From the sequence record NC_054929.1: a stretch of DNA of 64,000 bases, one strand, 5' to 3'. Source of the stretch: Escherichia phage PE37. The notes under the pieces are model-generated. The model made no database searches. It saw nothing but the letters and a program-made list of their open reading frames with translations, and was not told the DNA's origin. Shown in pieces: positions 49,806-52,467 of the stretch. The position numbers and the translations under genes were made by a program. The stretch's first letter is position 1; each line of letters begins with the position of its first letter.

Positions 49806-50834
49806 ATGTCATCAATACCTTGGATTGATAATGAGTTTGCGTATCGTGCATTAGCTCATTTACCTAAATTCACACAAGTAAATAACAGTTCAACTTTTAA
49901 ATTGCGGTTTAGATGTCCTGTTTGTGGAGATTCAAAAACCGACCAAAATAAAGCCCGTGGATGGTATTATGGTGATAATAATGAAGGAAATATTCATTGT
50001 TATAACTGTAACTATCATGCACCAATCGGAATATATTTAAAGGAGTTTGAACCCGATTTATATCGTGAGTATATCCTTGAAATAAGAAAAGAAAAAGGTA
50101 AAAGTCGTCCAGTAGAAAAACCTAAAGAACTTCCTAAGCGACCTGAGAAGAAAATAATTAAATCTCTTCCGTCATGTGTTAGATTAGATAAACTGGCGGA
50201 AGACCATCCAATTATAAAATATGTAAAAGCTCGTTGTATTCCAAAGGATAAATGGAAATATCTTTGGTTTACAACCGAATGGCCTAAATTAGTTAATAGC
50301 ATAGCACCGGGAACATACAAAAAGGAAATTTCTGAGCCTCGTCTTGTTATTCCAATTTATAATGCTAATGGAAAAGCTGAGTCTTTTCAAGGACGTGCAT
50401 TAAAGAAAGATGCTCCTCAAAAATATATCACCATTAAAGCTTATCCTGAGGCAACAAAAATATATGGAGTCGAACGAGTTAAAGATGGTGATGTATATGT
50501 TCTAGAAGGACCTATAGATTCACTTTTTATTGAAAATGGTATAGCTATTACGGGTGGTCAATTAGACCTAGAAGTTGTTCCATTTAAAGATAGACGTGTG
50601 TGGGTCTTAGATAATGAACCTCGTCACCCTGACACTATCAAACGAATGACTAAATTAGTTGATGCAGGAGAAAGGGTTATGTTTTGGGATAAATCTCCCT
50701 GGAAATCAAAAGATGTCAATGATATGATTAGAAAGGAAGGTGCAACCCCTGAACAAATTATGGAATATATGAAAAATAATATTGCACAGGGGTTGATGGC
50801 TAAAATGCGGCTATCTAAATATGCCAAGATTTAA
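49806..50834 (+). CDS. 61: DNA primase gp61
   Basis: 342 aa; zinc ribbon CPVCGDSKTD...CYNC; TOPRIM-like region. Confidence 0.9.
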   Translation: MSSIPWIDNEFAYRALAHLPKFTQVNNSSTFKLRFRCPVCGDSKTDQNKARGWYYGDNNEGNIHCYNCNYHAPIGIYLKEFEPDLYREYILEIRKEKGKSRPVEKPKELPKRPEKKIIKSLPSCVRLDKLAEDHPIIKYVKARCIPKDKWKYLWFTTEWPKLVNSIAPGTYKKEISEPRLVIPIYNANGKAESFQGRALKKDAPQKYITIKAYPEATKIYGVERVKDGDVYVLEGPIDSLFIENGIAITGGQLDLEVVPFKDRRVWVLDNEPRHPDTIKRMTKLVDAGERVMFWDKSPWKSKDVNDMIRKEGATPEQIMEYMKNNIAQGLMAKMRLSKYAKI

Positions 50835-51031
50835 ATTAACCCAACTAAAGCAAATGCTAAATCTACGAATGTATCAAGAGTAACTACTGGAATATTAATA
50901 CCATGTGCAATTGCAACAGGTGATAGAATAAAGTTCCAGAGTAAAATTCCTACCATAGCAGAAATAGTAAAAGCTATACGTTTCTTATTACCTTTTATGG
51001 CATTAACAAGTGCCATTAATTTTTGTACCAT
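50831..51031 (-). CDS. small membrane protein (66 aa), opposite strand
   Basis: minus-strand ORF in an intergenic gap with strong SD (AAGGAGG, 10 nt, ATG); two hydrophobic segments. Confidence 0.5.
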   Translation of the reverse strand: MVQKLMALVNAIKGNKKRIAFTISAMVGILLWNFILSPVAIAHGINIPVVTLDTFVDLAFALVGLI

Positions 51032-51059
51032 ATATATATATCCTCCTTTAAATTAATAT

Positions 51060-51110
51060 TTATCATAAATTTGTTTACTTTCTCAGCTTGTTATGGTATT
51101 ATAAAATAAA
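51060..51110 (+). promoter_or_regulatory. early promoter
   Basis: GTTTAC 51073-51078, 18 bp, TATTAT. Confidence 0.65.
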
Positions 51111-51127
51111 TTGCTGAGGATGATATA

Positions 51128-51688
51128 ATGATTAATAAAATTGTACATGAAATGGCTTTAAACGGAGATTCATATAAAATATCTGCCGTAGTTGAAAATT
51201 TCATACTTAATAAAGTAAAAGAATATTTCACTGATTGTTCAGTTAGTTATCAAGAAAAAATGGTTTTAATTGATGATACTGAAAAATCAAATAATTTGTT
51301 TTGCTCTAATTTTATAACTAAGAAGCGTACTAGAAGATTTGATATTGTTATTTCTCGCAATGGTAAAAAGCATATAATTGAAATTAAACACCAAGTTGGT
51401 GGAGGTACAGCTATTGATTCGGTTGGAATATATTTAGAAGATAAAGAGAAATTAAAAGAATACACAAAAACTGAAAATCCTGTGTCATTGATGATATTGG
51501 ATTTTTTGCCATGCGGATATTATCCACGTAATAAATGGACAAAAAGAGAATCATTTACTGATAATCCAACCATCCAAGCAAGGTTTAATGAATATGCTAA
51601 ATCACAAAACGTGTTAGTATTACTATCAAATACATATGATGAAGAATTGTATAATTCATTTTTTGCTGCAATAAATGAGAGAATATAA
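51128..51688 (+). CDS. hypothetical protein, possible PD-(D/E)xK nuclease fold
   Basis: ATG+SD GAGGA; motif RFDIVIS...HIIEIK; TAATG coupling to dam. Confidence 0.6.
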
Positions 51689-52467
51689 TGCTAGGAGCTA
51701 TCGCGTATACAGGTAATAAACAATCATTATTACCTGAACTTAAGCCTCACTTTCCGAAATATGACAGATTTGTGGATTTATTTTGTGGAGGTTTATCAGT
51801 GTCTTTGAACGTCAATGGTCCTGTATTGGCCAATGATATTCAAGAACCAATTATTGAAATGTATAAATGTCTTATTGATATATCATGGGATGACGTATTA
51901 AAAGTAATAAAGCAATACAAACTATCAAAAACATCAAAAGAAGAGTTTTTGAAATTACGTGAAGATTATAATAAAACTAGAGATCCTCTTTTACTTTATG
52001 TTCTTCATTTTCACGGATTTAGTAATATGATTCGTATAAACGATAAAGGAAATTTTACTACTCCGTTTGGAAAAAGAACTATAAACAAAAATAGTGAAAA
52101 ACGCTTTAATCACTTTAAACAAAATTGTGATAAAATAATCTTTAGTTCATTGCATTTTAAAGATGTCAAAATTCTAGACGGCGATTTTGTATATGTGGAC
52201 CCTCCGTATCTTATAACAGTTGCTGATTATAATAAATTTTGGTCAGAAGAAGAAGAAAAAGACCTTTTAAATCTTTTAGATTCTTTAAATGACAGAGGAA
52301 TAAAATTTGGGCTGTCGAATGTTTTAGAGCATCACGGAAAGGAAAACACTCTTCTTAAAGAATGGTCTAAAAAATATAATGTTAAGCATCTTAATAAAAA
52401 ATACGTCTTTAACATATATCATTCCAAAGAAAAAAATGGAACTGATGAAGTATATATTTTTAATTAA
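51688..52467 (+). CDS. dam: DNA adenine methyltransferase Dam
   Basis: 259 aa, [25 protein letters not shown]..., DPPY motif; matches T4 Dam. Confidence 0.95.

Follow-up and report, generated by a model that had tools for sequence, protein, structure and literature searches.

The DNA methyltransferase gene dam of Escherichia phage PE37 is directly preceded by ORF186, an open reading frame (ORF) whose 186-amino-acid (186-aa) product is shown here to have the predicted fold of a type II restriction endonuclease. The window, that is, the whole stretch of DNA analysed, comprises 64,000 nt of Tequatrovirus (T2/T4 group) DNA from this phage (NC_054929.1). T4 and T2 Dam are textbook enzymes, yet what they do in the phage has always been unclear. 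The chances are about even, in our judgement, that ORF186 and dam together form a compact accessory restriction-modification-like cassette of T4-like phages, of which T4 Dam would be the orphan. The evidence comes from the conservation of ORF186, from its modeled fold, from its constant association with dam, and from the comparison of the same locus in T2, T4, and T6.

Results

ORF186 represents a small and conserved phage gene family

The ORF186 protein of the window is identical to a 'hypothetical protein' of phages e11/2, PE37, and UPWr_E2, and it is assigned to phrog_8706, a family labelled 'function unknown' in all sources. Relatives are few: a word-indexed search of 5.8 billion proteins yielded 10 proteins, and scanning 1.84 billion cluster representatives in full with a HMMER profile yielded 12. 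Scanning 185,579 bacterial and archaeal species genomes for the family motif gave no relative, tblastn against plasmids gave no match at E <= 10, and a search of NCBIfam returned noise only. A scan of viral contigs yielded two loci, both already known. As far as these searches reach, the family is found only in T4-like phages.

An alignment of nine members, with identities of 29-63%, shows that E23, D72, E85, K87, H88, Q89, and G93-T-A-I-D-S98 are invariant. Between ORF186 and its diverged homologues, nonsynonymous divergence (pN) lies far below synonymous divergence (pS) in every pair, for example 0.19 versus 0.75. For a 66-aa ORF that lies upstream on the opposite strand, the values against Mosigvirus SSE1 are 0.31 and 0.78. 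Because pN is well below pS for both, the two are real coding genes, and ORF186 is a conserved gene under purifying selection. The T2 record AP018813 names the ORF186 product 'head outer capsid protein' and that of the 66-aa ORF 'putative head morphogenesis protein'. We regard these labels as spurious; they were transferred automatically by similarity, nothing in our analysis supports them, and UniRef names have inherited them.

ORF186 is predicted to adopt a restriction endonuclease fold

A first-pass annotation of the window, made from the sequence alone, had proposed a nuclease fold for the 186-aa protein on account of a RFDIVIS...HIIEIK segment. This segment is present and supplies D72, E85, and K87. 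The AlphaFold (AF2) model of ORF186 is a single domain, with a predicted local distance difference test score (pLDDT) of 83.9 and a predicted template modeling score (pTM) of 0.81. Its secondary structure elements follow the order alpha-beta-beta-beta-alpha-beta of the PD-(D/E)xK core fold, placing D72 on the strand of residues 66-77 and both E85 and K87 on the strand of residues 80-88. Searching the PDB with the model by Foldseek agrees with a restriction-endonuclease fold, and the structure that matches the model best over the whole chain is that of a small type IIP restriction enzyme. The proposed fold is backed by the model, by the structural search, and by the invariant motif; a PD-(D/E)xK restriction-endonuclease fold is well supported by the modeling, and catalysis is predicted from it. 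A search of BFVD returned the ORF186 family itself and generic nucleases only, and the family profile found no match at E <= 10 among PDB chain sequences.

Profile comparisons point to one group of restriction enzymes in particular. The Pfam family DpnII (PF04556) is the top family for four of the nine members (E <= 1), scoring 15.7 bits with ORF186 of the window and 22.5 bits with the best member (P0009) against a cut-off of 23. The alignment always covers the same core, positions ~143-235 of the about 278 in the DpnII profile. ORF186 is not a member of PF04556, as it scores below the gathering cut-off and leaves the N-terminal half of the domain unaligned. A PADLOC profile of similar length, REase_II PDLC03548, matches ORF186 with E 1.3e-4 and the best family member with E 5.3e-6. 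In hhalign, the ORF186 family aligned to DpnII relatives with P 7.7e-4 and a probability of 25%, and to a broader set of DpnII and MboI relatives with P 2.6e-3 and a probability of 12%. The register is common to both sets and puts D72, E85, and G93 opposite the invariant D201, E214, and G222 of DpnII. The profiles were built from retrieved DpnII and MboI relatives; the sequences used as bait are 99-100% identical to the database entries so named. At the level of sequence, kinship to DpnII/MboI is a consistent hint, not a proof. At E <= 1, Pfam returned neither the EcoRI nor the MunI family for any member.

ORF186 is coupled to dam in divergent phages

In all nine lineages of the family that could be placed, a Dam-type (D12) methylase gene lies directly 3' of ORF186, and the two genes overlap or abut (junction of -35 to 0 nt). 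This junction is seen in the window, in Klebsiella phage KPV15, and at loci L006, L007, L008-L012, L026, L027, and L028. The pair occupies three different neighborhoods. Tequatrovirus and its relatives (L008-L012, L026) carry it between genes 61 and 56, KPV15 has it beside denB and ahead of ndd, and in the metagenomic contig L007 it directly precedes rIIA. Across these loci the identities of ORF186 and Dam co-vary. In the window, where all coordinates of the first-pass annotation proved correct, the overlap that it had pointed out is in place: the last base of the ORF186 stop codon TAA (51686-51688) is also the first of the dam start codon ATG (51688-51690), giving TAATG. The product of this dam gene matches Pfam PF02086 with E 1.1e-50, and its nucleotide sequence is 98.7-98.8% identical to that of T2 dam.

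Public phage records show how strict the association is. The contiguous ORF186-dam junction occurs in 147 of the 182 dam-positive Tequatrovirus records. Full-length ORF186 occurs in 153 records, which are these 147 plus six Klebsiella-phage records, and therefore none lacks dam; adding the eight metagenomic loci, no case of ORF186 without dam was found. The opposite arrangement, decayed ORF186 beside a retained dam, takes the form of the T4-type deletion, of frameshift alleles of 181 aa, and of products of 142 aa (G29) and 61 aa (KarlGJung). Such one-way decay, in which dam outlives ORF186, is the pattern of restriction-modification pairs. A functional two-gene module would lead one to expect such coupling across divergent phages and contexts. 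Of the restriction-modification-module layout suggested earlier, the conserved coupling to dam stands, and the minus-strand mini-gene described along with it falls outside the module.

On plasmids of Lactococcus, Enterococcus, Weissella, Staphylococcus, and Lacticaseibacillus (L013-L017, L022), the nearest homologues of the phage Dam share 36-41% identity with it and belong to type IIS systems of the AlwI and FokI types. Dam of the E. coli type is much more distant, at about 22-28% identity. A DpnII-type partner beside the plasmid homologues was considered and rejected, these methylases being part of such type IIS systems or having no annotated restriction gene next to them.

The locus between genes 61 and 56 exists in three states

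The locus holds both ORF186 and dam in about 147 records (T2 type), dam with the last 27 codons of ORF186 in about 35 records (T4 type), and neither gene in the remainder (T6 type). The flanking gene 61 region matches 502 records of the Tequatrovirus group, about 30% of which carry the cassette and about 7% dam alone, the rest having neither. Dam-less phages of the T6 type are the majority of Tequatrovirus records; dam-less T-evens, T6 included, amount to roughly two thirds of the sequenced Tequatroviruses. In T6, the Shine-Dalgarno sequence of the 66-aa ORF is followed directly by ATTGCTT... and gene 56. The lack of ORF186 and dam in T6 defines the cassette as about 1.4 kb.

ORF186, which could not be placed in T4 at first, is indeed absent there, owing to a deletion of ~540 bp that left the last 27 codons. 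The gap between gene 61 and dam in T4 is 309 bp and includes the intact 66-aa ORF and this remnant. The T4 sequence across the deletion junction reads TTTATCgCAAAACGTG. About 35 records share the breakpoint, their matches beginning at query position 352, which is position 51601 of the window. Both T2 and the T4 remnant have five thymines (T5) in place of the T6 run near the end of ORF186, which shifts the frame of the last seven codons. The T2 product is therefore 181 aa long and ends in ...NSFLLQ, its stop codon lying 13 nt upstream of dam; alleles of this length occur in T2 and in phage 107. Since the T5 run is common to T2 and the T4 remnant, T4 descends from a T2-type allele. By uncoupling ORF186 from dam, the T6/T5 homopolymer run may also serve as a slippage-prone switch.

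The deletion may also bear on the transcription of dam. The putative T4 dam promoter P(E)17.40 (X01416; L031 613-641) straddles the deletion junction, taking its -35 element from the left flank and its -10 element from the ORF186 remnant, and is thus a product of the deletion. The promoter-like site ahead of ORF186 was lost in the same event. 

GenBank M22342 contains 640 bp upstream of T2 dam, which match the window at 98.6%, and ORF186 is unannotated in it. Miner and Hattman (J Bacteriol 1988) reportedly described a 536-bp insertion 5' to dam in T2, without similarity to T4. That '536-bp insertion' (M22342) is the same DNA as the ORF186 region. Unlike the insertion account, our comparison points to a deletion in T4, which has kept 27 codons together with the T2-type frameshift.

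Mosigvirus SSE1 (L023, 1235-2407) lacks dam and has an annotated homing endonuclease gene in the slot beside the 66-aa ORF. Judged from these arrangements, the slot looks like a hot spot of optional genes.

Neighboring genes and other features of the locus

The coordinates of the locus are collected in Table 1. The mechanical ORF of gene 56 begins with TTG and has 177 aa. Given that annotated orthologues are 519 bp long (172 aa), its true start is likely the ATG at 52529 (MSHFNE...).

Table 1. Features of the ORF186-dam locus in the window
Feature	Position	Strand	Remarks
Gene 61 (DNA primase)	49806..50834	+	Left flank of the locus
66-aa small membrane-protein gene (phrog_2024)	50831..51031	-	Neighbor, outside the cassette
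(TA)5 spacer between Shine-Dalgarno sequence and start of the 66-aa ORF	51032-51041	-
GGAGG of the 66-aa ORF	51042-51046	-
GATAAATA, late-promoter-like box	51057..51064	-	One mismatch to the T4 late-promoter consensus; 25 nt upstream of the 66-aa ORF
Whole ORF186-dam cassette, approximate	~51049..52464		Indel relative to T6-type genomes; boundaries read by eye
Segment absent from T4-type genomes (~540 bp)	~51066..51604		Promoter-like site and ORF186 codons 1-159
Promoter-like TTTACT-17-TATTAT ahead of ORF186	51074..51102	+	Consensus match; TG before -10
Shine-Dalgarno GAGG of ORF186	51116-51119	+	8 nt ahead of ATG
ORF186, 186-aa PD-(D/E)xK restriction-endonuclease-fold protein (predicted; phrog_8706)	51128..51688	+
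E23 codon	51194-51196	+	Helix 1; also invariant
Predicted catalytic core codons, D72...E85-I-K87-H-Q...G93-T-A-I-D-S98	51341..51421	+	Invariant alignment columns
T6 run near the end of ORF186	51659..51664	+	One base shorter (T5) in T2 and the T4 remnant
dam, D12-class N6-adenine (GATC) DNA methyltransferase	51688..52467	+	Pfam PF02086
Gene 56 (dCTPase)	52513..53046	+	Right flank of the locus

The 66-aa ORF is a genuine conserved gene for a small membrane protein. Its product matches phrog_2024 with E 1.4e-31 and is hydrophobic at about residues 17-45 and again at the C-terminus; single-sequence AF2 modeling predicts helices at residues 2-14, 16-42, and 52-64. All 691 phage records that contain the gene have it at the 3' end of the primase gene. 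It is found in T4, T6, and Mosigvirus (44-56% identity), with or without ORF186 and dam. We rejected it as a part of the module, because in these 691 records it occurs independently of the cassette. The strong Shine-Dalgarno sequence and the convergence with gene 61 noticed at first are both there, as a GGAGG 10 nt upstream and a 4-nt overlap with the gene 61 stop codon. This ORF, which likewise could not be placed in T4 at first, is intact there with two amino acid differences and is simply unannotated in NC_000866.

As for its expression, the record of phage Lutter (NC_054924) annotates the same GATAAATA box as a promoter, which suggests a late promoter and late expression of the 66-aa ORF. 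The (TA)n spacer between the Shine-Dalgarno sequence and the start codon is 10 nt long in the window, 6 nt in T4, and 4 nt in Lutter, and this variation could tune translation.

The 66-aa ORF had also been taken for the sole convincing minus-strand gene of the window. It is real, and its uniqueness is in question, as a 61-aa ORF at 27473-27655 (-) partly matches phrog_13445, a family of 28-aa proteins, through its last 27 residues (E 4e-21). This ORF sits in a gap between plus-strand genes (27423-27710) and is possibly a second opposite-strand micro-gene. Another such gap, at 11909-12235, contains a minus-strand ORF of 52 aa (11934-12089), for which PHROG gave no match.

Discussion

If ORF186 and dam are a restriction-modification-like cassette, the pair would be transcribed early from the promoter-like site ahead of ORF186 and translated in a coupled fashion. 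The nuclease would cut DNA at GATC sites without N6-methyladenine (6mA), or close to them, and Dam would methylate the phage's own GATC sites, thereby protecting them. The host chromosome is already Dam-methylated, and therefore the likely victims would be other, unmethylated DNAs in the infected cell. Candidates are co-infecting dam-less T-even relatives of the T6 type, other phages, and Dam-deficient host DNA. T4 Dam would have been left as an orphan by the ~540-bp deletion that removed its partner. T4 DNA contains 0.4% 6mA (PMC7653180), a level that by our own estimate about equals full methylation of GATC.

Several points weigh against this reading. GATC is the most depleted four-base palindrome in the window, with 64 sites observed and 200 expected (observed/expected ratio 0.32). 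It is also depleted in the cassette-free T6 (0.43; L030, 60-110 kb), and we rejected the depletion as specific evidence for the cassette, since T6 shows it without dam or ORF186. The glucosylated hydroxymethylcytosine (hmC) DNA of these phages resists most type II enzymes (PMC7653180). In a Dam-methylated host and on such resistant phage DNA, it is hard to see what substrate a classical GATC enzyme would find and why the phage should need protection. The similarity to DpnII/MboI remains below threshold and weakens to a probability of 12% once MboI relatives are added, and both the nuclease activity and the GATC specificity of ORF186 are predicted properties. Viable dam-minus mutants of T2 are said to have been obtained in the Hattman laboratory, so that the T2 frameshift allele, at least, would not kill unmethylated phage DNA. 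Finally, the early promoter that had been assigned to ORF186 is borne out in that a promoter-like site and a GAGG are present, but not in frequency: a consensus scan of the region gave 10 matches against 15.3 expected in shuffled sequence. From its match to the consensus, a promoter at this site is plausible, with a match count no higher than that of the shuffle.

A more specific proposal, which we consider unlikely, is that the cassette acts as an inter-phage weapon and a selfish element, cutting GATC free of 6mA in the hmC DNA of dam-less co-infecting T-evens. Such a cassette would exclude dam-less phages, or convert them by recombinational repair. It would explain two puzzles of long standing: why T-even phages keep a Dam methylase that has no known phenotype, and why GATC is the short palindrome most avoided throughout the group, cassette-free phages included. 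T4 would then be a 'disarmed but still immune' descendant.

Selfish spread is also at the center of another explanation, in which ORF186 is a homing-type endonuclease that cuts cassette-free genomes at the empty 61-56 junction or nearby. Recombinational repair during co-infection would then insert a copy of the cassette, in the way known from the T-even genes seg and mob, and Dam would be cargo or self-protection. The presence/absence polymorphism between conserved genes, with its three states, fits this idea, as do the annotated homing endonuclease in the same slot of Mosigvirus SSE1 and the confinement of the family to T4-like phages, with no relative in the 185,579 bacterial and archaeal species genomes. 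However, ORF186 is tied to dam at 61/56, at denB/ndd, and upstream of rIIA, which a single site-specific target would not account for, and its fold is closest to those of type IIP restriction enzymes. To our knowledge, the known T-even homing enzymes belong to the GIY-YIG or HNH families. Homing of this kind is quite unlikely in our view. The homing and restriction-modification readings overlap, given that restriction-modification cassettes can also spread selfishly.

The statistically insecure similarity to DpnII leaves room for a nuclease that has nothing to do with GATC and serves, for example, in repair, in the processing of recombination intermediates, or in RNA cleavage; its place in one operon with dam would then have a regulatory or historical cause. 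We think this distinctly unlikely. The strict linkage to dam persists down to about 30% identity and in three contexts, which is hard to account for without a functional tie, and the best whole-chain structural match of ORF186 is a small type IIP restriction enzyme.

ORF186 might also be a methylation-dependent, DpnI-like nuclease that cuts G(m6A)TC and helps to destroy the host chromosome. Dam would then complete the methylation of cytosine DNA, and the phage would be spared by its glucosyl-hmC and its few GATC sites. It is well established that the Dam-methylated chromosome is the sole abundant GATC substrate in an infected enterobacterial cell, and GATC is strongly depleted in the phage. 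Nevertheless, we find this improbable. ORF186 has no Pfam match to DpnI, and the single-domain model of the 186-aa protein lacks the second, methyl-reading (winged-helix) domain. What profile similarity there is points to DpnII/MboI, which are blocked by methylation, and the overlap of a nuclease gene with a methylase gene is classically the layout of a protective pair. In addition, T4 and T6 are known to degrade host DNA without ORF186, by means of EndoII and EndoIV.

That ORF186 is a non-catalytic regulator with a nuclease fold, binding DNA or Dam like a controller protein or specificity factor, would suit classical reports that T2 and T4 Dam methylate to different extents in vivo, T2 keeping the ORF and T4 not, but is very improbable with E23, D72, E85, and K87 invariant in every member, which is unusual for inactivated nuclease folds.

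Both ORFs are called hypothetical in public sources. The sources and papers searched give neither gene a name and ORF186 no function, and our literature searches found no paper on ORF186. The pairing of an endonuclease with a methylase is as such already known. What appears to be new is the ORF186 nuclease family, its restriction to virulent hypermodified phages, and the implied orphan status of T4 Dam. If dam normally pairs with a cognate nuclease that T4 has lost, decades of work on Dam would be reframed, and the existence of Dam itself would have a testable rationale. A very small endonuclease family restricted to phages would be added to those known. Restriction-modification logic would then also operate in a phage that is virulent and hypermodified, where its most plausible target would be rival phages and not the host.

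Among known systems, the restriction-modification-like cassette comes closest to the GATC systems of the DpnII/MboI/LlaDCHI type, which combine a Dam-like methylase with a PF04556 endonuclease. As in these, a Dam-family methylase stands beside a PD-(D/E)xK endonuclease (here a predicted one) in one transcription unit with overlapping genes, and what weak profile similarity the nuclease core shows is to the DpnII family in particular. Unlike them, ORF186 resides in virulent phages of the hmC type, and our searches turned up no homologue in bacteria. ORF186 has 186 aa instead of about 280-290 aa and E-x-K where DpnII and MboI have E-x-N, and the gene order, nuclease and then methylase, also differs. 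The likeness to MunI/EcoRI-like type IIP enzymes is structural only, with 12% identity. The GTAIDS that follows E-x-K presumably resembles the GNAxER of EcoRI and MunI, at another spacing, and we treat this as a lead only.

Two further comparisons concern the mobility of the cassette and its place in a virus. Like the Seg/Mob homing endonucleases, ORF186 is optional between conserved genes and polymorphic among close relatives. Those enzymes are of the GIY-YIG or HNH type, for neither of which ORF186 has a Pfam match, whereas ORF186 is of the PD-(D/E)xK type by its predicted fold and has an obligatory dam partner in several contexts. The chlorovirus pairs, such as the CviAI GATC system of PBCV-type viruses, offer the case of a lytic virus with an endonuclease and methylase of its own, as here. 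In these pairs the viral genome is methylated and other DNA in the cell is cut. Chloroviruses act on an unmethylated eukaryotic host, whereas the host of PE37 is already Dam-methylated, so that another target must be assumed here; the likeness drawn is one of layout. With the known origin of orphan methylases, finally, the T4 locus shares the loss of the nuclease gene and the retention of the methylase.

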